NCBI GenBank assembly: GCA_963662465.1
Contig: OY759599.1
Coordinates: 1,536,001 to 1,600,000, forward strand
Source of the DNA: Desulfatiglandales bacterium
Lineage (GTDB): Bacteria > Desulfobacterota > DSM-4660 > Desulfatiglandales > Desulfatiglandaceae
Reading direction: 5' to 3'
Length of the DNA: 64,000 bases
Below the pieces are notes generated by a model, which saw only the letters and a list, made by a program, of their open reading frames with translations, had not been told where the DNA came from and did no database searches. Numbering within the stretch: position 1 is the stretch's first letter; the number at the start of each line of letters is the position of its first letter. Of the stretch, positions 3,704 to 61,696 are shown one piece after another. A program made the position numbers and the translations under genes.

Positions 3704-3753
3704 TGGTTCCGTTTGGAGTAGCAAAACTGGTTCCATTTTGGTTAGCGCCCAAG
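3704..3753. repeat. Right terminal inverted repeat of the IS21 element (two tandem binding repeats)
   Basis: TGGTTCCGTTTGGAGTAGC AAAAC TGGTTCCATTTTGGTTAGC GCCCAAG; its reverse complement aligns with the left end at 55366-55415. Confidence 0.85.
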
Positions 3754-42000: not shown

Positions 42001-42089
42001 AATTATCCGTATTCTTTTGTCCCTCTGGTACTGGTTATGCGAGGACGTTTCAACTCAACTTTGAAGTTCGATACCAACACAACCGATCA

Positions 42090-42479: not shown

Positions 42480-43432
42480 ACACGGAATATGTTTGACATA
42501 TTCTTGGTGTGAGACTTAGGGTTCAACTTTTCAGATGGAATTTTGGGTATATTTGATGTCCTGTGGATGGAACATCTGTCTTTCCATTATGGAAGTGAAT
42601 GAAAATAGATCAGATAAGGGGATATTTGGTGAAATACTTAATATACCTATTCGGTGCGCTGGTTTTAGTTCTGCTTACGCCCACAGTAAACGTGGAAAAG
42701 TTACACTATGAAAAGTGGTATCAAGTTACGCCCAGAGCAAACGGAAAAAAGTTGCACTATGAAAAATGGTATCAGGAGAGATGGTGTAAGGCGAATGGTG
42801 GGTAGATGGAAGTGGTATTTCCGGACAAAACCCGATGTGATTGTTTGACGAACACTCACGCCATTGAATTTGATTTTCAGACCATTCCGGATCGTTTTAA
42901 GTACAGATCCTAAGACATGTTTTTGGTACACTTCGTTCAGGTATTCTCGGCATACTGATTTTCGAATTTGACCTTCAGGCCAAGCCCTCCCCACCAGGTA
43001 ACCCTGTTGAGCCCACGTTCAGAACGACTCTGCAGAAGACGACCAATCGCGGACTGGAGTTCTCCCTCTCCCATGTCCAGATAGGTAAGTTCGAGATGGT
43101 CTCCACGTTGACGAATTTTACAGTTGTGCCTCCCAAATAGCAAGTATCGAAAGGTCGATAGTGTTCTCTTGTATCCTGCTGAATCTCTGACAAACTTTTC
43201 ATCCAGGGACTGGAGGAAGTTCTCGTAGGCTAGCCTGGCAATCTGTACGCAGTAGAAGTTGGTCTCTATCTTCTCTGGATCTTTACCCAGGATGTGATCT
43301 ATGAAGTAGCTGTGGATCAAATCCTTTAGCCCGTTTTCGATGGGCCAGCGTAGCCTGTATCTCTCCAAGACTTCTCGATTCGAGAGATCTTGAAAAGTCG
43401 TTCCGAAACAACGCACATCACCTGTCTTCTTG

Positions 43433-45230
43433 CAGCAATTCCCGGTCAAGAATTTACTCACAGAGTTTGAAAAACATATTTCAAAAACAAACCCTGAGAT
43501 CAGATCCTTTTCAGAAAAATTGTATTAAATCCACTATTACCTCCCTCGATTTCTTGCAGGTTGAGCTTCTTTGACAAGAGTAAGAGCATAAAAGCACGAG
43601 TTAGGGCAGAGATATCCATTTCCGGAATCTCCAGTTTTTTATTAATGAGAGCATTTTTGTATGCGAACTTGGGCATGACAAATTTAACCACTGTTATATA
43701 GAATAACTGGCGCTTGAAACTTTACGCCATAATAGAGGGCTTCATAGAGCATCCTCATCGATTTGAATTCAAAATCTCTAAACAAAGCTCTCATCCGTTC
43801 CCACAATTCCCTTTTTGAGCCGAGTTTATGCCATGCGGCTATAAATAGAGGGCAACAAAGCTGTTGAGTTTGATCCACCAAGAATGCCAGCATCATGAGC
43901 ATCGCAAAAACAACACTCAGATTCTTCTTGCCGAGCCCGTAGTTGTGTTCAAAATGATATCCTTGGTTCTTAAGAGTATTGAAGGTTTCATTTTCGATCT
44001 TCCATCTCGCACGGCCGCCTCGCATTAGCTGGTATGCATTGTCCTTTCCTATTAAAAAATCTGTCACCCAACTAAAATGTTTTGTTTTTTTCGGTGTAAT
44101 TTCCCAATATTCCAGAAAGTTAACCAGCATATTCTTGTTAGAGGCATTGAGAGGTACCTGGTTAATAAATCGGAAACGATGTATTTTTTCCGGATCCTCT
44201 TTATCGACCAATTCGAATTCAGTGACGTCACCATTTATCCGCGCTTGTTCGACGTGATTAAACAAGAAATGGTGATCTCCTTTTTTAACTCCCAGAATAT
44301 AATGAAAATTTTGCTTTTGTATTTCTTCAATGTGGGGTGCATTCGAACTTAACGCGTCCTCTGTTATAATGATAGGCAGATGGGGATGCTCCTCTTTTAG
44401 CTTTTGCAAGAAACGTTTCGCGGCATTACGCTCACAGTCGTTCTTGCTTTGGCCATCCTGCTTGACTATGAATTCCGGAGCAAGCGGAATGACCTCTTTG
44501 AAATCCGGATGGACAATTGCTGCCCCCAACATCTGCTGATAATAGGTTTTTTCGCCGGTTTTTTTCGATACTTTTACCAAACAACTATCAGAGGAAAGTT
44601 TCTTCGATGAGAAGAAACCCGTTCCATCCAAAGATAGAAGATAACAACCTTCGAAAAATACCATACGTTCAAGCACCTTTCCCCTTTGCAGTTCCCAGAA
44701 GATATTCCTATACGGTTTCCGAAGTTCTTCTGCGAGCACTTCATCAAGAATGGTGCGCATCGTACTGTCACATGGGATCTTTCCAATATGGTATATGTTC
44801 CCAAGATTACTATCGGTTTTTCTTCTTTCATCAAAGGCAAGCAACGATGGCTCCTTGAGCGAAAACATTGCAAACCCGGACATCAAGGCATCCGCAATAG
44901 TAATATCGGGATCCTCACGGCAGTCAGAGACTTCAGAAAAATCTTTATGCAGACGCTTGAAAATTGCATCTGCATTAAGATGCTTGCGAACTCCAATCTT
45001 GCCTCTCTCTTTTCTTCCTTTTTGGCTTCTGATTCCCATAGGCAGTAATCATCGGCCAAGTTGATCTGAAAGTCCAGCTTTTTCTGAGAATTGCCAAAAA
45101 AATTCCTGTTTTATTTTAAAAATTGGAGAAAAAAGCCTTTTCAGGCTATTCATTCAACGTAAAGCTTTACGAAAAGGAAATGCCAAAAGGTACTGTCCTA
45201 GCGCCTTTAGAATCTAAGCGGGAATTGCTG
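43433..45230 (-). mobile_element. ISNCY-like insertion sequence (1798 bp)
   Basis: 12-bp IR CAGCAATTCCCG; 9-bp TSD GTCTTCTTG (43424-43432 / 45231-45239). Confidence 0.92.
43684..45039 (-). CDS. DDE transposase (ISNCY-like), apparently intact
   Basis: 451 aa; LSLDGTG, TEDALS, GRARWKIENETFNTLKNQGY. Confidence 0.92.
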   Translation of the reverse strand: MGIRSQKGRKERGKIGVRKHLNADAIFKRLHKDFSEVSDCREDPDITIADALMSGFAMFSLKEPSLLAFDERRKTDSNLGNIYHIGKIPCDSTMRTILDEVLAEELRKPYRNIFWELQRGKVLERMVFFEGCYLLSLDGTGFFSSKKLSSDSCLVKVSKKTGEKTYYQQMLGAAIVHPDFKEVIPLAPEFIVKQDGQSKNDCERNAAKRFLQKLKEEHPHLPIIITEDALSSNAPHIEEIQKQNFHYILGVKKGDHHFLFNHVEQARINGDVTEFELVDKEDPEKIHRFRFINQVPLNASNKNMLVNFLEYWEITPKKTKHFSWVTDFLIGKDNAYQLMRGGRARWKIENETFNTLKNQGYHFEHNYGLGKKNLSVVFAMLMMLAFLVDQTQQLCCPLFIAAWHKLGSKRELWERMRALFRDFEFKSMRMLYEALYYGVKFQAPVILYNSG

Positions 45231-45697
45231 GTCTTCTTGTTCCTTTTGACAACCAAGTGGAGTACCTTGGCGAGATTGTTCAGATCAAACCGTTTTCCCG
45301 CGATCTCGTATTCCTTACCGAAGGCTTCCCATTGGGCTTCGGAAACCACTTCACGCATCATCTGATCAACTCGCTTGTTTCGCTTCATGCACATGATCAC
45401 ATCAACTTGGGAGAACTCATCGACGACAAAGTAGTCGATTACCGGAAAGCTTGTGTATTCACTGTCCATGTATATCTCACGAATCGCATCGCGCCCCAGG
45501 ATCGGATAAAGGTTCTTTTCGCAGAACTCGCGGACAATCCTTGTTGCTCTGCTCGAACCATTGCAGAATGCTATGTTGATCAGAACGTCCGTGTCGAGGT
45601 CCCAGATAACGTGGGGCCGAAAGCCGGGGCAAATATCGCCGGCGGAGTTGGGTCCTTTGCCAATTTCCTCTGCGTCGGGTTGGTTGCCGTAGAACTC

Positions 45698-45809
45698 TTT
45701 GAAGTGGAAATCCTGTGCGATCCTCTCTCCCCGAATCAAACCCAGGTCCCGCGCCCTGGCGGCCACGTCATTTCGAAGATCCTGGAGGTGTTCGAACTTC
45801 ATATCAACA
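45698..45809. repeat. 112-bp direct repeat flanking the IS66 element, left copy (right copy 53294-53405)
   Basis: TTTGAAGTGGAAATCC...CTTCATATCAACA abuts both IS66 IRs; encodes VDMKFEHLQ...QDFHFK twice. Confidence 0.93.
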
Positions 45810-46306
45810 GTGTCCTTTCTGCAAGCCTGCATAGGGCAAATTTTTTCATTTTTTTTTGGGTGGCCGGAAGACGCTAGGTGGCGAGCTCCGTTATCCGGCG
45901 TCTTCTGTCGATCTGATTATCTGTGAGTTACTAAGACTGGGAATTTAGATTTTGCCTGTAATTCCAGGGAAGCCAGTTTTCGGGGTTTACCTTTACCAGC
46001 TCGGGATTTTTGTGAATGGTCAGGAGATATTCGTACGGATTTTCTCCGTTCATGGCACAGGTCTGAATAAGGCTCATAAAGATGTCTCCAATGAGGGCGC
46101 CATGCTCTGTTTTGTAAAACAGGGAGTTTTTTCTGTGAAGAATGGCCTTTTTCAAAGCCCTTTCGCAGATGTAATGCCGACTCCCGGATTATGCCGCATT
46201 ACAAGAATTTTGTGGGATTATTCGTGCCTTGAAGTAGTTGCTGACGCGGCATAATTTTTGTGGGATCTTCGGTTTGGCAATCCCGCCAAACGAAAGGAGA
46301 GACCAC

Positions 46307-47551
46307 ATGAAAACATTCAGTAATTTCGTATCGAAAAACAACCCGCATTCGAACCTATGTCAAACCCATGTCAACTCCTTCCTATCACACCTTCGCACTC
46401 TGGGGTATGCAGAACGGACGCTACGGAAAAAGCGTCCAGTTGCTGCCTCTTTTGCCCGATGGACAGTGGGGAAGCGGCTTACTGTAAACGATCTAAACGA
46501 ATCCCATCTGACCGAATTCGTGGAGCGTTTGCACAAAAGGCAAAAAGCCCGGATAAAATTCGAAATGGCTGCCCTGCGGCTTTTTCTCAGCTATCTGCGC
46601 CAAGAAGGTGTGGTTCCAAATCCTCCAATACTTGATGCTTCACCCGTGGATGATTTTAAGCGGACCTACATAGAATACCTGCGAAAGGAGCGAGGACTCG
46701 CCGAAAACTCAATTCTTGTTTATTCGCCTTTCATCAGTGATTTTCTCAATGATCGGTTAGCCCAAACCGGTTGCATCTCTTTCCATGCATTGGATGCCCT
46801 GACAATCCAAAATTTCCTCCTCGATCGCATTCAAAACCGGTCGAGAGAATACTCGAGGCTTCTGGCCGCCGCCCTCCGATCATTCTTGCGGTTTCTTTAC
46901 CTTCGCAAAGAAATAACAATTGATTTTTCCCTATCGATTCCCAGAGTCCGTAAATGGCATCAGTCCGAGGTAATTGGCTTTCTAACCCCCGACCAGGTAG
47001 AAAGGATCCTTTCGTCAACCGATCTGTCGACGCCACGTGGAAGACGCGATTATGCCATTTTGCTTCTTCTTGCACGACTCGGTCTGCGTGCGGGAGAGAT
47101 AATCACGATAGAACTCGGTGACATCCTCTGGCGGATCGGGGAGATCGTTATTCGCGGCAAGGGCCAAGTACAGGACCGACTACCATTGGTCTCAGATGTC
47201 GGAGATGCTTTAGCGGTTTATCTACGTCAAGACAGAGGAGATAGCGTATCGCGACGGGTTTTTCTGCGAATGATTGCTCCACGCGTTGGCTTGGCCGGCC
47301 CAGGGGCGATTGGCCATATTGTACGCCTTGCATTTGCCCGAGCCGGCATATGTGCTCCGAGCCGTGGCGCAGCCCATCTCTTCCGCCACGGTCTGGCCAC
47401 CAGAATGATCCGCCAGGGTGCCTCCATCGCTGAGATCTCTGAGGTTCTCCGTCATCAATCCCAGAGTTCCACAGCCATTTACGCGAAGGTCGATTTCGAG
47501 ACACTCCGTGAGATTGCTCCGCCTTGGCCGGGTCAAGGAGGTGTGCGATGA
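46307..47551 (+). CDS. RIT tyrosine recombinase A
   Basis: RDYAILLLLARLGLRAGE, RGKG, HLFRH, LRH, TAIY; RBS AAGGAG. Confidence 0.93.
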   Translation: MKTFSNFVSKNNPHSNLCQTHVNSFLSHLRTLGYAERTLRKKRPVAASFARWTVGKRLTVNDLNESHLTEFVERLHKRQKARIKFEMAALRLFLSYLRQEGVVPNPPILDASPVDDFKRTYIEYLRKERGLAENSILVYSPFISDFLNDRLAQTGCISFHALDALTIQNFLLDRIQNRSREYSRLLAAALRSFLRFLYLRKEITIDFSLSIPRVRKWHQSEVIGFLTPDQVERILSSTDLSTPRGRRDYAILLLLARLGLRAGEIITIELGDILWRIGEIVIRGKGQVQDRLPLVSDVGDALAVYLRQDRGDSVSRRVFLRMIAPRVGLAGPGAIGHIVRLAFARAGICAPSRGAAHLFRHGLATRMIRQGASIAEISEVLRHQSQSSTAIYAKVDFETLREIAPPWPGQGGVR

Positions 47552-48489
47552 CTGCAATCCGTGACGCACTTGCACGGTATTTAACAGTCCGCCGTGCCCT
47601 CGGTACTCGTCTACAAGAGCCAGCCACGACACTTGGCTATTTTGTAGATTTCCTTGACCTTCAGGGAGCAAAATTCATCACCACTGATCTCGCCCTTCGT
47701 TGGGCGTGCCAGCCAAAGCATGTGCAAAGAGCGACATGGGCACGCCGGCTTACTATGGTCAGGCAGTTTGGTGCTTGGCTGAGTGCATTCGACCCGCGAA
47801 CGGAAGTACCGCCAAAACGGCTCCTCAATGCCCGTCATCGGCGCAGTAAGCCCTACATCTATACCGAACAGGAAATAGAACATCTCATGATCGAGGCCGC
47901 TTTGCTCCCGTCACCGATGGGATTGCGCGCATTAACCTATGTGACGCTCATAGGTCTTCTTGCCGTTACGGGTATTCGGCCAGGTGAAGTGGTAGCTTTG
48001 AATCTGTCTGATGTGGATCTAAAGAACGGTATTCTTGTAATTCGGCAGACGAAATTTGGAAAGTCCCGTTTTGTTCCGATTGACGATTCGACATGTTCCG
48101 CCCTTTTGGATTATGCAAATCGACGCAATAACTTTTACACACGTTTTCAGACCAACAGTTTTTTTGTCTCCGAACGAGGCACAAGACTAAGTCTTGGATC
48201 CGCCCGACGTACATTCGCCAAAGTATCATGTGCTGTCGGTCTTCGAACTGCAAAAGATGGCTGCCGAATCGGTCGCGGACCAAGGCTTCAGGATTTTAGG
48301 CATACGTTTGCAACAAGAAGAATTATCAAATGGTATCAGGCCGGATTGGACGTGAACAGAGAGTTGCCAAAGCTCACTTCCTATCTCGGCCACTCAAACG
48401 TCAGTCATACTTATTGGTATATTGAGGCGGTCCCGGAGCTCCTCCAGCTCGCTTCCGAGCACATGGGCCGGCAAGGAGGTGCACAATGA
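47548..48489 (+). CDS. RIT tyrosine recombinase B
   Basis: TGIRPGE, TKFGKSR, QDFRHTFA, YLGH, TYWY; 4-nt overlap with A. Confidence 0.93.
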   Translation: MTAIRDALARYLTVRRALGTRLQEPATTLGYFVDFLDLQGAKFITTDLALRWACQPKHVQRATWARRLTMVRQFGAWLSAFDPRTEVPPKRLLNARHRRSKPYIYTEQEIEHLMIEAALLPSPMGLRALTYVTLIGLLAVTGIRPGEVVALNLSDVDLKNGILVIRQTKFGKSRFVPIDDSTCSALLDYANRRNNFYTRFQTNSFFVSERGTRLSLGSARRTFAKVSCAVGLRTAKDGCRIGRGPRLQDFRHTFATRRIIKWYQAGLDVNRELPKLTSYLGHSNVSHTYWYIEAVPELLQLASEHMGRQGGAQ

Positions 48490-49481
48490 AAGCCTCCAGC
48501 TTTTCATCACTTCTCCAGCGTTTCTTTACGGACAGATTGCTCGCACAGCTTGGCGCCAGTCCGCACACTGTTGCCGCATACCGGGATACCTTCCGTCTGT
48601 TGCTTCGCTTCGCCGCGAAACACTTCGGGCGTTCGCCTTCTGAACTGCGCATAGAAGAGCTCGATGTTTCTTTCCTGTGCAAGTTTATTCAACACCTTGA
48701 ACTTGATCGCTGTAATTGCATCCGGACACGGAATAACCGCCTTTCCGCCCTGCAAGGTTTCTTTCGGTATGTGTCCTTCAGTGAACCCGCACTGTCATTG
48801 CACTGTCAGAGGGTTCTGGCGATCCCTGCCAAACGGTACGAGCGCCGTCCGGTTGAGTTCCTGTCGGATGAAGAAACTGCCGCTCTTGTTGCAGTTCCCG
48901 ATTCAAAAAAATGGATCGGCAGGCGTGACCGAGCGCTCCTGTTGCTCGCCTTACAGACAGGATTGCGAAATAGCGAAATCACATCGCTTCAGTGCAAGGA
49001 TGTGGAACTCGGCACCGGTGCTCACGTCCGTTGCCTCGGAAAGGGTCGAAAGATGCGATGTACCCCTTTGCGCCCTGATGTCGTCGCAGTGCTGAAGAAA
49101 TGGTTAAAGGAGCAAGATGGCCATCCACAAGATCCTCTCTTCCCAAGCTCACGCGGTTTACGTCTCAGTGCAGATGCTCTCCAGCGACTCGTTGCCAAAC
49201 ATGCAGCCATGGCGAGTCATACATGTCCATCCCTAAAAGGGAAAACAGTTACACCCCACACCTTGCGGCATTCGGCGGCCATGAGCCTGCTCCGACGTGG
49301 TGTTGATCTGACCGTGATTGCTCTCTGGCTCGGGCACGAATCAAATGAGACAACACAAATCTACTTGCATGCTGATATGGGAATTAAGGAGCAAGCCCTT
49401 GCCCATACCACTGCAAGTGGTTCCATACCTGATCGGTATCTTCCTGAAGACCCTTTGCTAACATTCCTTGAGAGCCTTTGA
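48486..49481 (+). CDS. RIT tyrosine recombinase C
   Basis: TGLRNSE, GKGRK, TPHTLRHS, WLGHE, TQIY; 4-nt overlap with B. Confidence 0.93.
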   Translation: MKASSFSSLLQRFFTDRLLAQLGASPHTVAAYRDTFRLLLRFAAKHFGRSPSELRIEELDVSFLCKFIQHLELDRCNCIRTRNNRLSALQGFFRYVSFSEPALSLHCQRVLAIPAKRYERRPVEFLSDEETAALVAVPDSKKWIGRRDRALLLLALQTGLRNSEITSLQCKDVELGTGAHVRCLGKGRKMRCTPLRPDVVAVLKKWLKEQDGHPQDPLFPSSRGLRLSADALQRLVAKHAAMASHTCPSLKGKTVTPHTLRHSAAMSLLRRGVDLTVIALWLGHESNETTQIYLHADMGIKEQALAHTTASGSIPDRYLPEDPLLTFLESL

Positions 49482-50080
49482 TTATGCCGATTGAAAGAGC
49501 CATGAGAATAAGGGGTCCAACGCAGTTTCGACCAGTTAAAACGGATAAAATTGGCAATACGGCATAATCCGGGAGTCGGCATTATATCTGTTATGCCGCT
49601 CGCGGCATAACAGATATTGTTGTCAAGGGGCGCTCCAGGAACTTCCAGGAACCGGGTTAACGCCTTCCAGTGATTCAGCATATACTGAATTGCCTTTCCC
49701 AAACCGGAATTCGGTTCCACGAGTTTTTCGTCCAATTGCTTGTTGAGCCAGCAATACAATTTATCCATCAAGGGTTTGCTTTCAGCCTGATGGAAGGCCA
49801 GACGCTCTTCGGGTGACATGTTTTCGTCCCTGGCAATCTGATCATTGTGATACACTTTGGCAAGGGTATCGATCACAAACCGGCACTCTTCTGGAAAGCT
49901 CGGGGCGACATCCACGAAGTATCGGCGGGCATGGGTCAGGCAGTTTGCCATAATGACATCCAGGTCCTCCGATGAATTTCGAGACAAGGCATCGCACATA
50001 AGCTGAGGTGGACTGAGACCGGTCAGGCGATTTTCAAGAAGCGCCTTCAGATTTTCACCCGCGTGATTTCTGCCGGTAAA

Positions 50081-50661
50081 CTAAACAACCACCGTCTTGA
50101 AGACGGTGGGTTTAAAAGCGCGGACTGAAAGTCCAGCAAGACCGGCTTTAGCCGGTAAATTATTCGATATCGAAACGATCGTTTGGGTCTTTTTCAAAAT
50201 GGTGCTCAAGATACTCTTGAATCATGTCCTTGGTAAGCTCGCCAGATGTGACACAGAAATACCCCCGCGCCCAGAAATGCTTACCCCAGTATCGTTTCTT
50301 CAGGTGTGGGAATTCCTCAAAGATCTTTCGCGACGCCCTTCCCTTCACCCTTCGCATTATGTCCGAAGGGGAAATATTTGGTGGCGCCGAAACGAGAATA
50401 TGCACGTGATCCTTGCTGACCACACCACGCACTATCTGGATTTCGAAACGTTCGCAGGTCTGTCGCACGAGTTCCCGAACTCTAAGGGCAACATCACCCT
50501 GCAAAACGTGATAGCGGTATTTGGTTACCCAAACAAAATGATATTCAATCTTGTAGCGAGTGTGGCTTCCTTGACGGTATTCCATGCCAAGTATTATAAG
50601 CCAACCGCTAGCAAAATGCTACCCGCCTGAAAGGCGGGGGTTTTAACCTTTTCCAGAAACA
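50081..50661 (-). mobile_element. IS200/IS605-family element, tnpA-only (581 bp)
   Basis: Subterminal hairpins CCACCGTCT-TGA-AGACGGTGG (~50089) and CCCGCCT-GAA-AGGCGGG (~50622); no TSD; inserted 3' of TTTAT on the minus strand (boundary +/-1 nt). Confidence 0.92.
50160..50585 (-). CDS. tnpA: IS200-type Y1 HUH transposase
   Basis: YHFVWVTKYR, DHVHIL, KGRASR, FWARGYF, IQEYLEHH. Confidence 0.96.
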   Translation of the reverse strand: MEYRQGSHTRYKIEYHFVWVTKYRYHVLQGDVALRVRELVRQTCERFEIQIVRGVVSKDHVHILVSAPPNISPSDIMRRVKGRASRKIFEEFPHLKKRYWGKHFWARGYFCVTSGELTKDMIQEYLEHHFEKDPNDRFDIE

Positions 50662-51544
50662 ATAAAGAACCGCCTGGCGGTCATCCATTTTGGATATAAC
50701 ACCGGTGGTAAAAATCTCTTTTCGACCGTTTTTGGTTTCACCTTCCTTCATGAGGCTCAGAACTTTTCCCGTCGTATCGTCAATGTGGAACAACTCCCCC
50801 TGTGCGGATTGTTTCAGTAGTTCGATATACGGCCCTTTGGCCTCCAAACCCAATGGCTCAACGATACCCCACTGGGTTGATGCGGGAACCGGAACACCCA
50901 TCATGGCTTGAAACTGCTGCAACCGATAGAAAGGAACGCCGTTGGCGTATTTTAGAAGGGCAATGGAAACCGCAACCGTTTCATCATGTTTCTGAGTTCC
51001 CATATCTTCAGGAGGCGTTGCGGTAAAAATTTGGCCGCACAGGTTGCAGCGAAGCTTTTCCAGTTCATAAATCGTTCCCGTTAAAGGCGGCGAACCCTTA
51101 ATCCGGATTAACTTTTCGGGAACTTTTAACCGATACACTTTTCCCCTGGGACATTCCGGACAGGGGTCACCATGTTTGAGACTCTCGTGGCTTATGAACT
51201 TTCTTTCGGCGCCGGTAAAAGCCGAAGCACCGTTTCGACCATGGCCTTTCGGTGGGGGGTTGCCGCCTTTTGGACCGGGATCATCTTCCGGATTATCGCC
51301 GTCTTCGGAATCGGCGTCATCTTCCGGATCATTAAACACTTTATCTTTCTTTTCGGATTTTTGCCCGAACAAGAGGTTTAGCAGCCGCTTGATGGATGCG
51401 GCCTTCTGGTCCAGTACCTGACTCAGGGCTTCAATGGTATCCGCCATGACCTTGATAATCTCGTAGTCGGATTCGGAAACCGCCGGTTTTATCCTTTCAA
51501 GAAGGGACTTGACGTCTTCGGGGGTTAATTCGAGTTTTTGGGGT

Positions 51545-52423: not shown

Positions 52424-52476
52424 GGCAAAAACATAAGCATGTATGTTTTGAACGCAAGGGGGGGGACCTGGTTTTT

Positions 52477-52839
52477 TCAGGGTAAGCTAATTTTTTTCCA
52501 TAAAGGCGCGGCTCCTTTGGGGTTGGTGTTCCATAAAATCATCTGCAGTTCATGGGCGGCCAGCTGCTCCAAACGGCCATTTTCCGGCCACCAGTGAAAA
52601 CGACCACTCGACAGCCGTTTTTGGCAAAGCCAGAATCCCTGGCCATCATACCCGAGAATTTTGATGGTGGTCCCTCGTCTATTACGAAAAACAAAAATAT
52701 ACCCGGAGAAGGGATCTGATTTTAAAACACTGCGGCAAATGCCGGCCAGGCCATCAATGCCTTTTCGAAAATCCACCGGCTTCACCGCCACAAGTATCCG
52801 CATTTGGGGGCTGATCTGCATCATGACTGTTGCCTCCAA
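52477..52839 (-). CDS. tnpB: IS66 accessory protein TnpB (Orf2)
   Basis: PVDFRKGIDGL, FVFRNRR, KILGYDGQGFWLCQKRLSSGRF. Confidence 0.95.
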   Translation of the reverse strand: MEATVMMQISPQMRILVAVKPVDFRKGIDGLAGICRSVLKSDPFSGYIFVFRNRRGTTIKILGYDGQGFWLCQKRLSSGRFHWWPENGRLEQLAAHELQMILWNTNPKGAAPLWKKISLP

Positions 52840-53216
52840 AATGTTTGGATCAGGGATGCAACATCAATAGGCCCCTTCACATGGACTTTCATTCTGGCGC
52901 CTGCTTGTTCAAGCTCCAGATTTACTTCAACCGAATCAGCTGGTGGGTTGAGTGGTGGCAATTCTATGAATGTGGGTGGAAGAAGTTCTTCGGTCGGGCT
53001 GTTCGGAATACTTTCAATGCGATCCTTCAGGTCACTGTAATTCAGGTGCAATGCTTTGGAAAGTTTATTAATGCTGAAATTATCCACCAGGGAAACAGCA
53101 GCATCCCATAAGGACTCAGGAATACGGTCCCGTTTCTTGCGGTTTTTGCGCCAGTCGGAAAACTGGGCTTGTACTGCTTCGAGACGTTGCTTCTCTTTTG
53201 ATTTTTTCTTCGCCAT
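52821..53216 (-). CDS. IS66 accessory protein TnpA (Orf1)
   Basis: 'RIPESLWDAAV' HTH-like region and 'PTFIEL'; first gene after the IR, RBS AGGAGG. Confidence 0.8.
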   Translation of the reverse strand: MAKKKSKEKQRLEAVQAQFSDWRKNRKKRDRIPESLWDAAVSLVDNFSINKLSKALHLNYSDLKDRIESIPNSPTEELLPPTFIELPPLNPPADSVEVNLELEQAGARMKVHVKGPIDVASLIQTFWRQQS

Positions 53217-55615
53217 GGGCTATCCTCCTGAAAGGTTTTAGCCCAAGTTAAGTCCCCCGCGCAGCATTTCATGCGGGCTTGCCGAAAGGACACTTTGAAG
53301 TGGAAATCCTGTGCGATCCTCTCTCCCCGAATCAAACCCAGGTCCCGCGCCCTGGCGGCCACGTCATTTCGAAGATCCTGGAGGTGTTCGAACTTCATAT
53401 CAACAAACCCATCGTACAGGGCCGTTTTCCCCGGAAAAACACCGACGCCGGCGGCAACCGCCACAGAGCGGTCGCTGTTTCTATTGAGGTGTCCCACCGT
53501 CTCGTATCCAGCCAGGATACGGCAGACGTTCAAGAGGACAAGATTGGTGATCTCACTGCCCTCGCCCCTCTTGGGAGCGTAGACCTGGAGAGCCTCGCAG
53601 ACCCCCAGATCATCAATGAACTGCGCAAGCACAATCGGGCCAGGATCGCAAACCGCAAATGCTCGGCTCTGCATGCGATTCAAGAAATGTGCAAAGTGTG
53701 CGTTCAACTTCTTCGGAACCCGAAACTGGCCTGCCTCGGCCGCATCCTTTGCTGTCTTGAGAAGCGGCGCCGGTTTCTCCGGTACCTCTTCTCCCCAAAG
53801 ACCTCGCAATCGTACAGGCCTACGTTCCTTCTCCAAGAGTTCCCAGTATCGCAGAACTTCGTAAAGCGCCGATCGGGAACAGCGCAACTCCATCCGTGCC
53901 ATCAGCTCATCCAGACTGAAACGCGGATGTTCCATCTTCTCCTCAATGACACGTATTTCCAATTCATCGGAAATTTTCCCTCGACCCCGACCGGGCTGTA
54001 TCCAATCCACCAACCCCCACACACCGTAGTTCCGAAAGCGATACAGGTACTTGTAAAAAGTTGGTCGCGACATGCCATAGCGGCGTATTGTATCCCCTAA
54101 CTTGAAAGCATAGGAATTTCCATTTTTGATTTGGCATATCAAATAGTTGTTGCAGTGATGGCATTAAATGTGTCAAAAAAAGCACATTATGCATATGCCA
54201 TCAAACCAAAAAATTGATAAGGAGACTTTCCGGACGATTTTTATTGATCATTGGGAATCATTCAAAGAGCATCATCCAGGGTATGATAATTCGCAATATG
54301 AAGATCCGGTTCAGAAAATGCTTGGTTGCGGCAAGGAAAGCGCCGGATATAGCGAGCACCGGTGTGTTTATTGCGGTGGTGATGTTCGCCGGATAGGTTT
54401 TAGTTGCAAGAGCTGTTTTTGTTTATCCTGCGCCAAGAAATATGTTGACGATTTTGTCAGTCAAGTGAGTAGGGTGCTTCATGGGGGCATGAATTACCGT
54501 CACATTGTTTTGACAATTCCCGAGCAACTGAGAATCGTTTTTTATAAGGCTCGAAATGATGGACGTTTGTTATCGGCTTTTATGAGATGCGGGTACGAAT
54601 GTTTGGAGGATGTTGTCGGAACGGTTCTTCGGCGGAAACTGAAAATAGGAACGATCGTCGTTGTTCAAACGCATGGTCGATCCGGTCATTATAATCCGCA
54701 TTTGCATATCATCATGACAAGCGGTGGGATAAATGAAGATCTGTGCGGTTGGTTTGATTTAAGGTTCTTCAAGTATGAGATTATACATAAGAAATGGCAG
54801 TATCATCTATTCAGAATGCTCAAGTCCCATTTTAACAGCAGTGCGGTCGATAAACTTATTGATGAGCTGTGGAAAAAATACCCTAAAGGTTTGGTAGCCA
54901 ATGTGAGCAAGGGTAATGTTCCTGAGACATGTGGGGGTCTGGCGCGATATTTGGCGAAATATGTTGCATCTCCTCCGATAGCTCTGAGACGGATAATCAG
55001 TTATGATGGCCAATATGTTACCTATTGGTACAATGATCACATGACAAAATCCAGGAAGGTTGAAACCGTGGAAGTGGATGTTTTTATCGGTCGAATGGTT
55101 CAACACATAATGCCCAAAGGGTTCCAGCGGGTTCGTTATTATGGGCTACAGGCTACGAAAACTTTTAAGAAATGGTCGGAAGTAATACGGAAAGGGATGA
55201 AGGCTTTGGGGCGTGGGATTAAAGGAACGTATCAAGTCGTAAAAGCGAAAAGATATCGAGAACGTTATAAGGAGATCAGCTCTCAAGATCCTTTTTTGTG
55301 TCGTTATTGTGGCCATGAAATGGTGCTATGGAAGATATGGCATCCAAAATATGGAGTTTTATATGCTTCAACGCTAATCAAAACTGAACCAAGTTTGCTA
55401 ATGGAAATTGAACCATTGGCTGTCACCGCCGGTGAGTACGGCCCTCAGGTATAGCGGACGATGAGGGATCCATAAGTGGCGGCAAAGGAGTCGTTGATGT
55501 AGATTTACTTTTCAATAAATTTTTATAAAATCTATTTTCTTTGGATTTGGTTTTCTTCTTCCAAGACAGAGGCTTGGTTAAGTGGAAATGCGATTTACTT
55601 TGTAGAATGGATGGT

Positions 55616-55651
55616 GAAGGCCCGAAGTAGCCGCTTCGGGCCTTCTTTTTT
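55616..55651 (+). terminator. Strong intrinsic terminator inside the IS21 left end
   Basis: GAAGGCCCGAAG-TAGCCG-CTTCGGGCCTTC-TTTTTT, a 12-bp perfect stem plus U-tract. Confidence 0.85.
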
Positions 55652-55727
55652 GACCACCGGATAGAGCCGGAAGCCACACACACGCCAATTTTATATAAGT
55701 GTGTTTCCGGCCAATTGCAAGGCCGGA

Positions 55728-56144
55728 ATGATGGGAGATGTCCTTTTAAGAGTGGTTCAATGCCGATGTTGTGGTTGCTTTTTTCACGTCTGTCGGTCGT
55801 GTTGGCGTGGCCAGGCCTATTGTGGGGAACGATGTCGCAGGATACGCCAAAGACAGCTGCACCGGAAAGCTCAGGGGAAATACCGCAATTCGAAAAAAGG
55901 GAAAGAGCGCCGTCGTTTGTACGAAAAAACAAAAAAATCCAAAAAAAATGGACTGAACCCTGGTGATGATAGTTCAACACCTCAAAAAGACTGTGATATT
56001 GAACCCAAAAAGCGGTCGGGGAACCGACCCAGCTGTCTTTTTTGCGGGTCGATCGGGGTTGTTGTGGACCATTTTCCTCGCCGTGCTTATGCAGGGAGGG
56101 TTTTTTCAGATGTAACAGGCTTTGAGAAAACCCCATATCCATGA
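55728..56144 (+). CDS. Cys-rich basic putative zinc-finger protein
   Basis: CRCCGC-CRSC-YCGERC cluster, Arg/Lys-rich helix, C-terminal CLFCG; start uncertain (55701-55731). Confidence 0.65.
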   Translation: MMGDVLLRVVQCRCCGCFFHVCRSCWRGQAYCGERCRRIRQRQLHRKAQGKYRNSKKGKERRRLYEKTKKSKKNGLNPGDDSSTPQKDCDIEPKKRSGNRPSCLFCGSIGVVVDHFPRRAYAGRVFSDVTGFEKTPYP

Positions 56145-56156
56145 CAGGAGAAAAAA

Positions 56157-56576
56157 ATGATCAAAAAAAGAGTCCTTTTTCCCGAAAGAGTGCGTGTCAT
56201 CAATGGAAGCTTCGGCTTTCTGGAGCATCGTTTTTTGAGAAACGGCTTTTGGGAGAGCCTGAATCATCATGAGCTGCTGCTCTACATTTTTCTGGTGTTG
56301 GTATCTGACAAAAACGGGCTCTCTTATTATGGTTACGACAGAATCTGCCGGATTTTAAAGGTGCATTTGGATCAATATATCGATGCCCGCGATGGCTTGT
56401 TGGACAAGGATCTGATTGGGTTTGATGGCCGTCTGTTTCAGGTTCTTTCGCTTCCCAGACGTCCTGTGATTGTGAAACAGGTAAAGGAGATCCGGCAAGG
56501 AAATTGGGTCAGTCTTGGAGAAACCATAGAGGAAATCTTTCGGGAGACTGGGTATGGAATCCATCCGAACCGTTGA
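56157..56576 (+). CDS. Winged-helix/replication-protein-like accessory protein
   Basis: 139 aa, RBS AGGAG; 'ELLLYIFLVLVSDKNGLSYYGYDRICRIL' resembles an HTH replication-initiator N-domain. Confidence 0.75.
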   Translation: MIKKRVLFPERVRVINGSFGFLEHRFLRNGFWESLNHHELLLYIFLVLVSDKNGLSYYGYDRICRILKVHLDQYIDARDGLLDKDLIGFDGRLFQVLSLPRRPVIVKQVKEIRQGNWVSLGETIEEIFRETGYGIHPNR

Positions 56577-57438
56577 TATTCATTTGCTGGAGTTGCGTTA
56601 CGCTCATTGCCGGATAATGAATCACCAGGCTTTAAAGCGATTGAGGGATTCCATCGAAACTTACGGGCAGATCGTTCCGGCCCTGGCTATTGAAGAAAAA
56701 GACAAACTGATTCTGATTGATGGCTACCTGCGTGTTCGAGCGCTTTGTGCTTGTGGAAAGGACCGGATATGTGTCCAATTCTCAAAAGAAAACGAACAAA
56801 ATGCCATGTTTTCGCTTTTAACCAAGGCCAATGAACGGCAATGGGAAGTCATTGAGCAGTCTGTTTTACTTCAGGAATTACATCGGCGTTTTGGGTGCAG
56901 CCTCTCCCATATTGCAACCCGAATAGGGCGCGACAAGAGTTTTGTAAAACGGCGGCTGGACCTGGTTGAAGCCCTGCCGGAAAATATTTTGAGAACCGTG
57001 ATTGCAGGCTCACTTTCAACCTGGGCTGCCAGCCGTGTCATGGCGCCGTTGGCGCGCGCCAACGGTGAAGACGCACAAAAACTGTTGGCCCACCTGGAAA
57101 AAGAACCTCTATCCACAAGGGAACTGGCCCGTTTCTACGCACATTACCAGAAAAGCAACCGGTCTGTTCGAGACCACATGCTGGAAAATCCATCCCTTTT
57201 CATAAAAGTTCTCGAACAAAGAACCCAGTCTAAACAAGCCAAAGAAGTTCATGATGGACCGGAAGGCAAATGGTTCAAGGATATTGAAATGGTATATGCG
57301 GTTCTCAAACGTCTGGTGAAAACCGTTTCGCATGTCCATTACCCAAAAAGCGATCAGTTGAAGAAACAAACGCTCAAAACCTGGGTGAAAAAGATAGAAA
57401 AACAAGCACTGGAACTCAAGAAAGCGACCCAATTATGA
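56554..57438 (+). CDS. ParB/Spo0J-like protein
   Basis: Same as 217..1101 apart from one A/V change. Confidence 0.85.
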   Translation: MESIRTVDIHLLELRYAHCRIMNHQALKRLRDSIETYGQIVPALAIEEKDKLILIDGYLRVRALCACGKDRICVQFSKENEQNAMFSLLTKANERQWEVIEQSVLLQELHRRFGCSLSHIATRIGRDKSFVKRRLDLVEALPENILRTVIAGSLSTWAASRVMAPLARANGEDAQKLLAHLEKEPLSTRELARFYAHYQKSNRSVRDHMLENPSLFIKVLEQRTQSKQAKEVHDGPEGKWFKDIEMVYAVLKRLVKTVSHVHYPKSDQLKKQTLKTWVKKIEKQALELKKATQL

Positions 57439-58817
57439 TCCGACAATCCAAAAAAGATGCCATTGTGGAATTGAAAAAAACCGGCATGAGTTTGCGCGAC
57501 ATCGCCAAAACCCTGAAGGCCGGTCGCAATACCGTCACGAAGGTTTTAGATGATCATGACGAAGAGGCGGTACCCCAAAGGAACTCCCGGTATGAAGAAC
57601 ATGTCCCGTTGATCCGCGAGCTTTTCAAGGAATGTAAAGGAAATGCCGTGCGAGTAGCCGAGGAACTGGAAAGCCGCCAACAGATCAAAATCCCTTATCA
57701 GAGTCTGACCTGGATTATGAGAAAGTACGAGATCCGGGAACGTAAAAAAAGACGGGCGGGCCAATACCATTTTAAACCCGGTCAGGAGATGCAGCATGAT
57801 ACGTCACCCCATCTGGTTGTCATTAATGGGAAAAAAATGTCGACCCAGTGCGCGTCCCTGACCCTGGCCTTTTGCCGAAGGATTTTTATTCAGTATTACC
57901 CCTGTTTTACCCGGTTTGAGTGCAAGGTTTTCCTAAAAAAAGCATTCGAGTTTATGGACGGGGTGTGTTCCCGGTGCATGGTTGACAACACCAATGTTAT
58001 TGTGGCCGGCGGCACCGGGCCTGATGCATTGATTGCGCCTGAAATGAAATACTTCGGCGATATGTATGGAACCCGGTTTGAGGCCCATGCTGTAGGAGAC
58101 GCCAATCGAAGTGCCCGTGTGGAAAGGCCTTTTCATTTTGTGGAAAACAATTTTCTTCCCGGTAGAACATTTGTTAGCTGGCAGGATTTGAACCGGCAGG
58201 CAATCGACTGGTGCCGGAATACAAGCGATAAAAAGTTTAAACGGGCTTTAGGGATGACGCCGGATGAGGCCTATGTCATTGAAAAGCCATATCTCATTGA
58301 TTTACCGGCATACCAGCCGCCAGTCTATGTGGCAGAACACAGGGTAGCCGATGTTCAGGGATATGTGCACTTGGACACCAACCGCTATTCAGTCCCTGAA
58401 GCGCTGATTGGGAACTCCCTGGAAGTACAGAAACATTGGCTCAAGGTCATCGTTTACGACAAAAACACAAAAGTGGCGGAACATGACCGCATACTGGATA
58501 AACGCAACACCCGAACAACCCTGCCCGGTCACCATGTTCCCATTCGAAGAAAAAAAGATCCCCGAATCCCTTCAAAAGAAGAACAGCTGTTGACGGGAGA
58601 GGATGCCATCCTGGATGAGTATGTGGCTGAACTGAAGAAAAGAAGTCACGGTCGCGGTGTGGTCAAGTTACGTCGGTTGCTTCATCTGAAACGCACTTAT
58701 CCCGGGGAACCTTTTTTGAAAGCCATAACACAGGCGCTTAAATATGGACTTTTTGATTTGTCGCGTCTGGAAAACATTATTCTCGATTATATCGCGGGAG
58801 ACTTTTTTGATCTATGA
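57435..58817 (+). CDS. istA: IS21-family transposase IstA
   Basis: Same protein as 1098..2480. Confidence 0.93.
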   Translation: MIRQSKKDAIVELKKTGMSLRDIAKTLKAGRNTVTKVLDDHDEEAVPQRNSRYEEHVPLIRELFKECKGNAVRVAEELESRQQIKIPYQSLTWIMRKYEIRERKKRRAGQYHFKPGQEMQHDTSPHLVVINGKKMSTQCASLTLAFCRRIFIQYYPCFTRFECKVFLKKAFEFMDGVCSRCMVDNTNVIVAGGTGPDALIAPEMKYFGDMYGTRFEAHAVGDANRSARVERPFHFVENNFLPGRTFVSWQDLNRQAIDWCRNTSDKKFKRALGMTPDEAYVIEKPYLIDLPAYQPPVYVAEHRVADVQGYVHLDTNRYSVPEALIGNSLEVQKHWLKVIVYDKNTKVAEHDRILDKRNTRTTLPGHHVPIRRKKDPRIPSKEEQLLTGEDAILDEYVAELKKRSHGRGVVKLRRLLHLKRTYPGEPFLKAITQALKYGLFDLSRLENIILDYIAGDFFDL

Positions 58818-59533
58818 AAAAGAAAATTGAACAGTTACTCATTGATTTGAAGTTTAAAGGCATGCTGAAGGCTCTCGAAGAACAGTTGGCTTCGGCTGAA
58901 AAGAACGGTTTTTCCATTCACGAGGTCATCTACAATCTCCTGGCTGAGGAATTACGTTTCCGGCAGGAGCGCAGCATGATCTATCGGGTCCAGATTGCAA
59001 AGCTTCCATGGGAATGGACCCTCAACTCCTTTCCGTTTGATCTTCAGCCGGGAATACAGAAGAGCCGGATCATGACGTTGTCCGGCCTTGACTTTATCAG
59101 CCGAAGAGAAAACATCGTGTTCCATGGAAAAACCGGCGTCGGCAAAACGGGATTGGCCGTGGGGATCCTTCGTCAAGCCATTATTGCCGGGTACCGGGGG
59201 CGTTTTTATAATGTTCAGGATTTGCTGGATCAGCTCTATGCGTCTTTGGCAGATCGGTCCACCCCGAAACTCCTCAATGCCCTTTGCAGATATGACCTGC
59301 TTCTGCTCGATGAACTGGGATACCTGACCCTCAAAAAAGAGCAGATGAACGCCTTTTTTAAACTCATGAAAGATCGCTATGAAGCCGGTCGGTCCACAAT
59401 TATTACGACCAATCTTCAACCTGAACAATGGTATTCGCTGCTTGAACCAAAGGACATGGTCGATGCCTTGCTGGATCGTCTCAACCATCGCTGCATCAAC
59501 ATTCATATTGATGGTCCTTCCCTCAGAAAATGA
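58814..59533 (+). CDS. istB: IS21 helper ATPase IstB
   Basis: Same protein as 2477..3196. Confidence 0.95.
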   Translation: MKKKIEQLLIDLKFKGMLKALEEQLASAEKNGFSIHEVIYNLLAEELRFRQERSMIYRVQIAKLPWEWTLNSFPFDLQPGIQKSRIMTLSGLDFISRRENIVFHGKTGVGKTGLAVGILRQAIIAGYRGRFYNVQDLLDQLYASLADRSTPKLLNALCRYDLLLLDELGYLTLKKEQMNAFFKLMKDRYEAGRSTIITTNLQPEQWYSLLEPKDMVDALLDRLNHRCINIHIDGPSLRK

Positions 59534-59631
59534 GATGTTCGCCAAAGGGCCGGTTTTGAGGTCTGAATATCACCGGTCTGTTTGAATCTCGTTACACGAA
59601 TATCAGAAATTACCTTGTCTTGGAGCTTGAA

Positions 59632-59829
59632 ATGAGAGGTGGAAAACGGGTAGGCGCCGGCCGAAGAAAGAAACCGGAACATTTGAGACGTGAACTGCTC
59701 ACCATTCGTCTCCCCAAATGGATGATTCTACAGCTGAAAAAAAACGGGGAAATTGGATATTTGATTGAGGATCAATTGGCGAAGGGAGGCCTCCTGAATT
59801 TACCGGACGACTATGACATAGACAAATAG
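59632..59829 (+). CDS. Small basic RHH-like DNA-binding protein
   Basis: Same as 3295..3492. Confidence 0.6.
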   Translation: MRGGKRVGAGRRKKPEHLRRELLTIRLPKWMILQLKKNGEIGYLIEDQLAKGGLLNLPDDYDIDK

Positions 59830-60149
59830 TTCCTCAATAAGCATTGCCCTTAACCGAAAAATCTAATCCCCTCTTCTCTGCCATCACCATATTGATGGTA
59901 TCCTCATCACTGATTCTTCAACCAGAACGCTACGTGTCTCACCAGCATTTTTAAAATACCATCTGATATACTCTTTCATGCAACCTCTAACAAATTTACA
60001 AGAAAACCCTTCTAAAAGGAAAAGACCAGTGCGCAATATCTGGTTCCGTTTGGATTAGCAAAACTGGTTCCATTTTAGTTAGCGCCCAAGTTTATATGAC
60101 GAATATGAAAACATCAAAAACGACAGGTACGGCACGGTTACAGGACAAA

Positions 60150-60386
60150 ATGACAGCGGGGGTGGAAGGCGAGGACTTCCCGTTCGGCCCTCCTCCGGAG
60201 GAATATCCTTACCGTTGTTCCCATTGCCGGCATGAAATGAAGGTAAATGAAGCGATAATAGACGTCGAGATTGCAAAAGCAGAATATGAAGGAAGGAATG
60301 TGGAAGGCTTTATGCCCATTCTCGGTTGCCCTCAGTGCAATCGAGAAACAATGAAATATGCGCAAGGTAGAAAGCCCGCGCGTTAG
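60150..60386 (+). CDS. Small CxxC...CxxC accessory ORF of the IS91-like element
   Basis: YRCSHC...LGCPQC; overlaps the transposase 3' end and stops at the terminal palindrome. Confidence 0.6.
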   Translation: MTAGVEGEDFPFGPPPEEYPYRCSHCRHEMKVNEAIIDVEIAKAEYEGRNVEGFMPILGCPQCNRETMKYAQGRKPAR

Positions 60387-61696
60387 CGCGCTAAGTTCTT
60401 TTTCTGCTTCAAGCCCAGTTCCCGAAATAACTCGAAGCGTAATTGCAGCGCCTCCTCAGGAATGTAAAACGTACCCCTGCGGTCTTTCTTACTTCGCATT
60501 GACCCCGTTTGCGACGTCAACCACCGAATCGCCCGTACGCTCTGCTGGATTCCATACCAGTAGCTCTGGTCATTTTCGTCGCGGCTATTCCCGATTCCGT
60601 GGCAATGCAAGATATGGCTGATCGTTTTCAACGTGGGTCGCGGTGAAAGACCAAGTGCCTCGGCGAAGCGCAATATCATCGTTTCCGTGGCCTTGGGCCT
60701 GGTCATCTTCAGAATCAAAGCGAGACGTTCAAGCTTTTTGTTCTGCTTCTTTGCGCCCAACTCAGGGAAGAGTGCAGCACACCCGTGCTCGATGAATGCG
60801 GTCTCTAACCGGTAGAAGTCAGTCCTGGAGCAACAAGCAGCTTTGCAGGCGTCTGTTATGGAATTCCCTTCCATCCAAACACTACGAAGCATCTCGTAAT
60901 TCTGCACAGCCGGATCGTCGGTAAAGAAAGGTACATCAGTATTGGGGCGCCTTCGGCAGTGCATGGGCAACCGTTGAAGGGAGCTCGGCCAGATAGCTCA
61001 TTTGTTTTTGCGTGAAGATCATGGCCGATATTGTAAATATCTAAACTGGATAAGTCAAGCATTTTTGTATACCCCTATACCAAACACACAGAACTCGCCT
61101 CAATTTTATATAACCATTTGAAATAATAAAGTATTTTGCTGATAGCCATGATCAGACAAGGCCGGAGCTCGGATCGATCGCTGATAGGATTTCCACCACA
61201 GGGATAAAATCTCCTTATTTATAAAGGGATTGGAGCTCAACTCCCGCGTTTTGCGACTATTCAGTTAGGGGGTTTACTTTTTGTTCGGAATGGCTATTTA
61301 CACCGCAATGGAATGTCAAACTTTTTCAGCTAATTGCATAGGAAGTGCATCCGATGACACGACAAAAACTGTATCGAAAAAGGGTCCGGAATGGTCTGAT
61401 TTTGGAAAAAAATGGGCTGAATCTATCGGCCAGGCGCTTTACTATTCGATCCAGACGGGGAAAAGGGCAGGGGTAGTACTCATACTGGAAAAACCGGGTG
61501 ATTATAAATATTGGATTCGATTAAATACCATTATTGAGCATTTCAGTTTGCCCATTGACACATGGAAAACAGCGCCGCCGGGCGGTCTTGATTGATGTTT
61601 TTCACTGTACAAATCCGGATGCTACTCTGAAAAGGCTGACAGATCAATCCTTCACTTTTTTTGAAAATATTGAGATTCAAGAATAATATAGGAAGT

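Follow-up and report, generated by a model that had tools for sequence, protein, structure and literature searches.

We analysed a window of 64,000 nucleotides, positions 1,536,001-1,600,000 of the single-contig 8.16-Mb genome of a Desulfatiglandales bacterium that carries dsrA, in which seven mobile elements occupy 42878-61398 in three nesting levels and with four recombination chemistries. The nest is a safe-haven pile-up, and two of its layers, an IS66-family element with long flanking repeats and a RIT element with a fixed insertion site, are its specific parts. We think it probable that the nest grew stepwise in dispensable DNA of a sulfate reducer rich in insertion sequences (ISs), with these two specific layers added. 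For the layers themselves we put forward a more tentative reading, which may well be wrong in part. A group of IS66 elements with GTGTCC ends and a DUF4338 gene would make long variable duplications in one step, a second, unrelated transposase family doing as IS1549 and IS1634 do, and a widespread RIT clade would home to the catalytic codons of IS66, its palindromic adaptor serving for integration as well as for inversion.

All boundaries were resolved when the nest was compared with the genome by BLAST, and Pfam and NCBIfam scans confirmed its DDE, Y1, Y2 and tyrosine-recombinase proteins, which bears out the anatomy drawn up in an earlier note from the letters of the window. The 5-bp, 9-bp and 8-bp target-site duplications (TSDs) and the 112-bp repeat described there are likewise all present.

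Long direct repeats around an IS66-family element

The more unusual feature of the nest is the 112-bp direct repeat around its IS66 element, which lies inside an outer 2.8-kb DDE IS. The features concerned are as follows.

45810-53293, minus strand: IS66-family element, about 3.46 kb without inserts, ends GTGTCCTTTC(T/G)GCAAGC
52821-53216, minus strand: tnpA-like gene
52477-52839, minus strand: tnpB
51545-52423, minus strand: DUF4338/DruA gene
51555 to about 45934, minus strand: tnpC, in three pieces
45698-45809: 112-bp direct repeat, first copy (outer-IS sequence)
53294-53405: 112-bp direct repeat, second copy

The repeat is exact, abuts both inverted repeats (IRs), which begin with GTGT, and is present once in homologs of the outer IS. 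Family scans gave 175 bits to PF03050 (cut-off 23) for TnpC of a RIT-free copy elsewhere in the genome and 97.8 bits to NF033819 (cut-off 50) for TnpB; the open reading frame (ORF) in the tnpA position, of 131 amino acids (aa), is conserved in relatives and had no family match in these scans. The window copy carries five private single-nucleotide polymorphisms (SNPs) in 1.5 kb. Its sister copies are flanked by an 8-bp repeat at 7.133 Mb (7133218) and by none at 2.49 Mb.

Of 208 other genomes of the class, 15 held relatives with GTGTCC ends and the gene order tnpA-tnpB-DUF4338-tnpC; further searches gave a few more. Counting only insertions with both ends and long flanks, we obtained ten independent sites, with repeats of 20 bp or more at four (112, 169, 35 and 25 bp), 8 bp at three and none at three. 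By genome these are 112 bp, 8 bp and none here, 35 and 8 bp in G004 (locus L196 being a second copy of L197 within a duplicated block), 169 bp in G121, 25 bp in G604, 8 bp in G641, and none in G095 and G511. Left out of the count were five contigs with less than 90 nt on one side, one without a flank and two deleted derivatives; no repeat was seen in the five short-flank contigs or the two derivatives. As a control, exact repeats of up to 300 bp were sought at 207 insertions of 20 other families in this genome. None reached 20 bp, the longest being 13, as against 4/10 for IS66 (Fisher p=2e-6). Viral contigs and phages gave no further long-repeat case, and the plasmids searched had no four-gene layout; other searches yielded one more match, on a short contig.

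We suggest that the IS66 transposase at times attaches the ends of the element to target positions that lie far apart; gap filling would then leave the 112-bp repeat. An IS66 group with both 8-bp and long repeats would be a second system for long variable duplications and offer a route to gene-segment duplication.

IS66 elements as a rule make an 8-bp target duplication, and in most members the IRs start with GTAA. The window's group resembles the family in its TnpB and DDE TnpC proteins, gene order, IRs starting with GT, 8-bp repeats at 3/10 sites and a passenger gene. It differs in having GTGTCC rather than GTAA ends, DUF4338 between tnpB and tnpC, and repeats of 25-169 bp at 4/10 sites. A passenger-carrying tIS66, ISPa75, is described in PMC12888890, and ISDge4 of the IS66 family has GTGA at one end (PMC12898284). 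Direct repeats that are long and vary from 8 to 514 bp are described for IS1549 and IS1634, both of the IS1634 family, in a 2008 review that states that a mechanism had not been proposed (PMC2266710). The flanking repeats are in both cases long, variable and perfect, whereas those elements have a single gene of another transposase family and the present one is a three-gene IS66 with an accessory gene. No IS66 case with 25-169-bp repeats was found in the literature searched, outside of which the main IS66 papers lie.

The genome has 26 occurrences of DUF4338/DruA, most of them carried by ISs (ISAs1-type and IS66), and in relatives the domain adjoins varied transposases (loci for both, L009 and L236-L255). 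Because the domain is mostly IS-borne here, its DruA match does not denote a Druantia system. DUF4338 has been described as a GNAT domain (PMC10853773).

The RIT element and its site in tnpC

Among the elements of the nest, only RIT shows targeting. Its parts are listed below.

46172-49584, plus strand: RIT body, 3,413 bp between 25-bp IRs TAATGCCG-N9-TTATGCCG
46238-47551, plus strand: ritA
47524-48489, plus strand: ritB
48486-49481, plus strand: ritC, the third of three adjacent overlapping tyrosine-recombinase genes
46166-46171: left 6-bp spacer, CAGATG
49585-49616: outer adaptor, composed of spacer TATCTG, 20-bp palindrome TTATGCCG-CTCG-CGGCATAA and spacer CAGATA

With the adaptor the element measures 3,445 bp, up to 49616, and has the terminal IR and flanking palindrome by which RIT elements are defined. 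The filled site thus reads spacer, IR, ritABC, IR, spacer, 20-bp palindrome, spacer; the empty IS66 site lacks the adaptor and has CAGATG once. On the tnpC strand the 6-bp insertion point falls inside the TnpC codons N-N-I-C-E (motif NNxxE), and the insertion removes the last 79 residues, including E456. Conserved TnpC residues are D259/D260, D328 and E456, the last of which is invariant in 24 TnpC sequences. In the structural model E456 is placed in a helix after a strand-rich core, as expected, and is likely the third DDE catalytic residue.

All five RIT copies in the genome (four full and one remnant) occupy this TnpC site. The full copies differ at 0-3 of 3,413 bases and their spacers vary. 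One of them, at 7.14 Mb, is inverted, with the palindrome still on the Asn-Asn side, and the window RIT is identical to it though the IS66 host in the window has five private SNPs and other spacers. Four contig sets were placed on 45770-61900; empty and filled sites were both seen (X3 has the RIT-free joint 46171>49617, with the outer-IS piece 53302-53839 uncovered), and no RIT circle joint was listed for any of the four.

Ten plasmid RITs, out of 299 plasmid records, were examined. All seven with RitB 53-60% have their junction in the same IS66 register (WVENQ, VIERD, AAERA, PCENA), and the three with RitB 49-51% have no end matching the junction pattern. Three metagenome loci (L069, L075, L130) provide further such junctions; L079 has NNIC at the junction, with its IS66 identity unconfirmed. 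A pattern scan returned at least 129 other RIT-form junctions, some of the rows being two views of one element. Among the matches listed, 53 have palindrome-flanking spacers that are exact reverse complements of each other and 84 have at most one mismatch, compared to 1.5 and 6.6 for shuffles, and the body lies in one orientation in 48 and in the other in 24 where this can be told. The target as read from the junctions is AAYAA-6bp-YGAR. More distant RITs lie in reverse transcriptase, integrase or IS21 genes or in another IS66 motif.

These observations are consistent with a model in which a RIT circle would carry IR-6bp-palindrome-6bp-IR and would integrate by tyrosine recombination across one spacer, after which the integrated element could invert across the other two. 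The fixed site, the empty allele and both orientations within one genome define a donor and a target for an assay. RIT in TnpC would also be a case in which a mobile element puts a second one out of action by breaking its active site. RITs with a palindrome at both ends were seen at L028, L055, L091 and L104 and may be real intermediates or assembly effects.

In Cupriavidus metallidurans CH34 the RIT archetype, ritA1B1C1, is reported to have knocked out the transposase gene of an IS66 element (PMC2864759), and a terminal IR, a flanking palindrome and a length of about 3.5 kb are described for RIT elements (PMC3414803). The present element is alike in its three overlapping tyrosine recombinases, its length, its IR and palindrome and, compared with CH34, its IS66 transposase target. 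It is unlike them in its codon-level site, three-spacer junction and inversion, which were not found in the accessible parts of PMC2864759, PMC3414803 and PMC10214605; nor was the term IS66 found in the PMC3414803 supplement. The RIT mechanism is given as undeduced in PMC5737581, and in 2023 target specificity was listed as not formally tested (PMC10214605). The codon-level target has partial precedent and may be largely known. Ricker 2013 is said to describe RIT gene preferences.

Several points count against one-step duplication and codon-level homing. The long-repeat sites are few and include the copy that prompted the count; they amount to 3/9 without it, and to 4/15 if the five short-flank contigs, from metagenome-assembled genomes (MAGs), are counted. 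The empty sites of the three long-repeat cases outside the window were not seen. DUF4338 alone does not yield long repeats and was rejected as a sufficient cause, the ISAs1-type element here having 10-13 bp and the G678 element 8 bp. On the RIT side, the TnpC model is poor around E456 (predicted local distance difference test, pLDDT, under 50), its fold match is weak (E=0.002, with no match at E<=0.001 in the fold search), and same-genus RITs with RitC of about 55% (L153, L154, L163) are not beside IS66.

The 112-bp repeat could instead have come about in more than one step, either from two close insertions of the 8-bp type on sister chromosomes that recombined or from a local hop that left a duplication, and we give this a lesser but appreciable chance. 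Three of the ten sites have the standard 8 bp and three have none, which suggests that rearrangement around these elements is common; two copies in the genome are truncated, and plasmid relatives without DUF4338 gave 8 bp in 3/3 cases. However, the four long repeats are independent, lie in four genomes, are exact and abut both IRs, with 0/207 in the 20 other families. It is unlikely that IS66::RIT was mobilised in trans and spread as a single composite rather than by repeated RIT homing. The copies at 2.49 and 4.39 Mb are indeed alike in orientation and spacers, and a RIT-free TnpC reading frame survives at 7.133 Mb. In contrast, the spacers differ among the window, 2.49/4.39 and 7.14 Mb, a RIT remnant of 98.8% identity occupies these codons in an IS66 relative of 70% identity at 5.17 Mb, and IS66 elements of Burkholderiaceae, just 26-35% identical, have their RIT at this site too. 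The composite is refuted as the sole route and may explain the 2.49/4.39 pair.

Probable growth in dispensable DNA and the likely order of events

To map mobile DNA over the genome we used 28 reference pieces together with the proteins they encode and stretches located by Pfam, families beyond that set being uncounted. It makes up 6.6% of the genome, with 17.7% non-coding and 75.7% host coding DNA. The 207 insertions, from pairing the ends of 20 multi-copy families other than IS66 and RIT, comprise 29 in mobile DNA, 27 beside it, 125 in non-coding DNA and 26 in genes. Without ten copies of one IS91b family (eight in tandem), 37 miniature inverted-repeat elements (MITEs) and 25 group II introns, 135 insertions are left, namely 21 in mobile DNA, 15 beside it, 76 in non-coding DNA and 23 in genes.

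Hence genes, at 76% of the genome, take 17% of the insertions (23/135), as the safe-haven branch of the earlier note would have it. Its other branch, a general targeting of transposase genes, finds no support within non-genic space, where 21/97 insertions are in mobile DNA against an expected 27% (p=0.25). We favour safe-haven survival over targeting because there is no excess of nesting over non-coding DNA. All six inner insertions do hit a transposase coding sequence, as the note had observed, but this is a weak sign given that the three host elements consist of such sequence to about 85%, 85% and 46%.

We also simulated neutral insertion (1.44 Mb of neutral DNA, 260 insertions, each landing in neutral DNA or an earlier element). 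At this middle setting, nests of at least six elements arose in 11% of runs and of at least seven in 3%, with a range of 0.1-25% over nine settings. Since the RIT insertion is not random, six is the fair number for comparison. Such a nest is uncommon, yet no special mechanism is required for it, and other repeat blocks of 13-19 kb are present in the genome. A second 19-kb pile at genome 7125000-7144999 holds several 2.0-kb DUF6431 elements, a RIT-free IS66 with an IS5-type insert and the IS66 with the inverted RIT. It also has a deleted relative of the outer IS, 550 bp long, which is cut by the IS66 end.

Some of the figures speak against an undirected pile-up. If insertions beside mobile DNA are counted as mobile the share becomes 36/112 (32%), and nesting is enriched against the whole genome (21/135 vs 6.6%, 2.4-fold, p=0.0002), as non-coding DNA is too, such that the verdict hangs on the null chosen. 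The home-made gene caller (79.6% coding) may class broken genes as non-coding, a bias towards no enrichment, and a nest of seven elements is a tail outcome of the simulation, with some settings giving less than 1%. For the assembly, no contig record spans the nest, and support comes from short-read contigs, among them those of X1, which may be the source sample.

Active targeting of transposase genes or other mobile DNA by several families, for example by the ParB-carrying IS21, would account for that genome-wide excess and for three insertions inside one 2.8-kb element in a genome with patchy mobile DNA (0-28% per 100 kb). We consider it improbable since no family exceeds the non-coding null save a tandem IS91b array, which is one amplification, and IS21 itself was rejected as a targeter, at 5/15 in mobile DNA (p=0.39) and into five different elements. 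That the nest is a chimeric assembly of repeats is highly improbable. The missing spanning contig would fit a chimera, and the window's private SNPs are unseen in the collapsed contigs of X1. Against this, four layers are closed by matching duplications, and the outer pieces, each unique, are colinear with the intact relatives. The X1 depths agree with three full right ends of IS66, and two of these continue into other flanks. Depth in X1 is about 50 over unique parts, 149 over the right part of IS66, 180 over RIT, 499 over IS91 and about 1,140 over IS21, the last four being close to 3, 4, 10-11 and 23-25 copies, respectively, and fitting the assembled copy numbers. X1 also has a loose end, at 53293, with the sequence of the DNA that precedes the first repeat copy; it may be that copy's junction or an IS66-free allele.

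In stepwise growth, the 2.8-kb DDE IS would have landed in a duplicated flank and then died. Three unrelated elements (the 1.8-kb DDE IS, IS66 and the IS91-like element) would have entered the dead IS, followed by IS200 into IS66 and IS21 into the IS91-like element. These five insertions appear to follow each element's short target rule, and would have survived as harmless, each enlarging the target for the next. IS66 probably gathered its private SNPs after arrival, with RIT and IS200 entering later. The 1.8-kb IS and IS21 may be the latest, or among the latest, because they are identical to other genome copies. Both this order and selection as the cause of the pattern are what we infer. Recent activity of the inner elements is supported, as they are 99.7-100% identical to other copies in the genome. 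The very recent burst proposed earlier does not fit the outer IS, which is single-copy and frameshifted, nor quite the IS66 copy with its private SNPs. By itself the nest illustrates only the way in which further mobile DNA gathers in mobile DNA that is already dead.

The outer insertion sequence, the other inner elements and neighbouring DNA

The remaining features of the nest are given here.

42878-61398, minus strand: outer IS, 2,824 bp in pieces 42878-43432, 45240-45809, 53406-54104 and 60399-61398; IR CAGACCATTCCGGA; 5-bp TSD ATTTT
61022 (ATG) to 42937 (stop), minus strand: outer IS transposase, helix-turn-helix (HTH) + DDE_Tnp_1, 795 aa in intact relatives
43433-45230, minus strand: 1.8-kb DDE IS, 1,798 bp, single gene (ORF 43684-45039); IR CAGCAATTCCCG; 9-bp TSD GTCTTCTTG
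54105-60398, plus strand: IS91-like element, 1,561 bp in pieces 54105-55365 and 60099-60398, Y2 + zinc-finger transposase
55366-60090, plus strand: extended IS21, 4,725 bp; 8-bp TSD TTTATATG
56157-56576, plus strand: winged HTH (wHTH) gene of IS21
56554-57438, plus strand: ParB-like gene of IS21
57435-58817, plus strand: istA
58814-59533, plus strand: istB
50080-50660, minus strand: IS200-like element, 581 bp, Y1 transposase 50160-50585, inside IS66 tnpC

Scripted removal of the six inner elements, an in-silico check proposed in the earlier note, gave 2,824 nt that align end to end with L003 (90.5%) and L004 (88.6%), the latter encoding one 795-aa HTH + DDE protein. The excised IS is also colinear with L005 over 2,730 nt and with a fourth related locus over 1,317 nt. 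Those relatives of the outer IS that are named come from Deltaproteobacteria, Thermodesulfobacteriota and Desulfobacteraceae MAGs; outer-IS DNA was unmatched in the 40 relatives searched. An empty site was found at genome 166878, in a paralogous flank 97-99% identical. According to the note, removal restores an in-frame ORF, and a 787-codon open stretch does reappear, but the start common to the homologs (ATG 61022, 4/4) is out of frame with it. The cause is a +1 frameshift, one extra base in the run 60944-60947, near codon 26, compared to 4/4 homologs; an X1 contig crosses this site without a gap.

The genome has no other copy of the outer transposase, its tblastn matches being the nest's own pieces only. 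The sole kin of the outer IS elsewhere in the genome is a short deleted relative at 7.144 Mb. The outer IS is dead and, because its transposase is frameshifted and the genome has no intact copy, the nest has no visible means of moving whole. This leaves no donor in the genome for the idea that it could move as a unit with transposase supplied in trans. The genome's 2.6-kb Transposase_29 family was rejected as such a donor (just 24% over 215 aa, E=0.001).

The pieces of the outer transposase score 18-33 bits against NCBIfam cut-offs of 100-225 (IS4, IS1634, ISH3, IS1380), an intact homolog having been scanned with Pfam alone, and the nearest Atlas clusters are unnamed transposases. The element resembles large DDE_Tnp_1 ISs near IS4, IS1634 and ISH3 in its DDE_Tnp_1 domain, CAG ends and 5-bp TSD (families with a 5-bp TSD are listed in PMC2266710). 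It is unlike them in its 2.8 kb, 795 aa, N-terminal HTH domains and scores below all NCBIfam cut-offs. We ruled out two fused transposases, suggested by IS481-like and IS4-like matches, as intact relatives have a single 795-aa gene.

The 1.8-kb DDE IS interrupts the outer transposase at about codon 631 and has 11 near-identical copies in the genome plus three relatives of about 85%. The earlier note called it ISNCY-like; in family scans DDE_Tnp_1 was at the cut-off and IS4/ISAs1 matches were below threshold, and we assign it to no family.

The IS91-like element lies at about codon 208 of the outer transposase, and its own transposase scores 217 bits against NF033538 (cut-off 125), a Y2 protein with a zinc-binding domain. 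It has no TSD, as the earlier note had it, and is inserted after TAACTTG with the end GTTC; the target CTAA named in the note was ruled out, being 4 nt off by 13 paired copies and 4/4 outer-IS homologs, which read TGACTTG at this point. The 13 paired copies start AAAGCATA behind a TAACTTG-like 7-mer and all end in GTTC, with CTTG preceding eight and similar 4-mers the rest. IS91 elements have CTTG/GTTC-type tetranucleotides at target and end, and the opposite transposase orientation. The Y2 protein and lack of a TSD agree with that family, whereas the transposase here reads away from the end beside the CTTG-like target. Tandem IS91-like copies at genome 1050991-1052862 have the end-to-start joint TAAGTTC|AAAGC, which fits insertion into an own end or a circle route.

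The extended IS21 is inserted within the last 45 codons of the IS91-like transposase and has 26 left and 26 right ends genome-wide. IstB scores 225 bits (cut-off 200) and IstA 129 (cut-off 160), with a Mu-transposase C domain. Scores above or near family cut-offs and a TSD within 6-10 bp are as in the IS21 family, unlike the wHTH and ParB-like genes. A second IS21-ParB copy at window 1-3753 (genome 1533098-1539753) has a DUF4338-ISAs1 element inserted exactly where the copy at genome 5974616 has it, and therefore the composite was copied as a unit or converted. The IS200-like Y1 transposase scores 161 bits against NF033573 (cut-off 55). Like IS200/IS605 elements with tnpA only, the element has a Y1 protein and no TSD; its target is AATAAA at 4/4 right ends, the element ending at 50660 and the AATAAA beyond being target.

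The outer IS lies in a duplicated block (window 41470-42877 and 61399-61595 vs genome 163670-167076, 97-99% identical) that holds an XRE-type regulator at 42090-42479; the second block copy has the 1.8-kb IS in place of the outer IS. Two 49-bp tandem repeats (86%) at 42675-42774, between the XRE gene and the outer IS, are possibly operator sites. A metallo-beta-lactamase-fold gene at 39127-39795, 3 kb from the nest and not part of it, scores 94 bits against a resistance-family cut-off of 240.

Elsewhere in the genome, a 2.0-kb element (3302409-3304414) is present in 20 full copies. Its terminal IRs are perfect, its repeats measure 8-9 bp, and its frame of 605 codons has just a weak DUF6431 match. 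A 2.86-kb three-copy element (3315892-3318749) has 7-bp repeats and ORFs of 669 and 241 codons without a Pfam match. In the window, 40200-41920 is ORF-poor and C-skewed and has no Pfam matches, with repeated 49-65-bp motifs and long hairpins at 40328-40389, 40527-40590 and 41294-41379; a similar stretch lies at genome 7729294-7730498.

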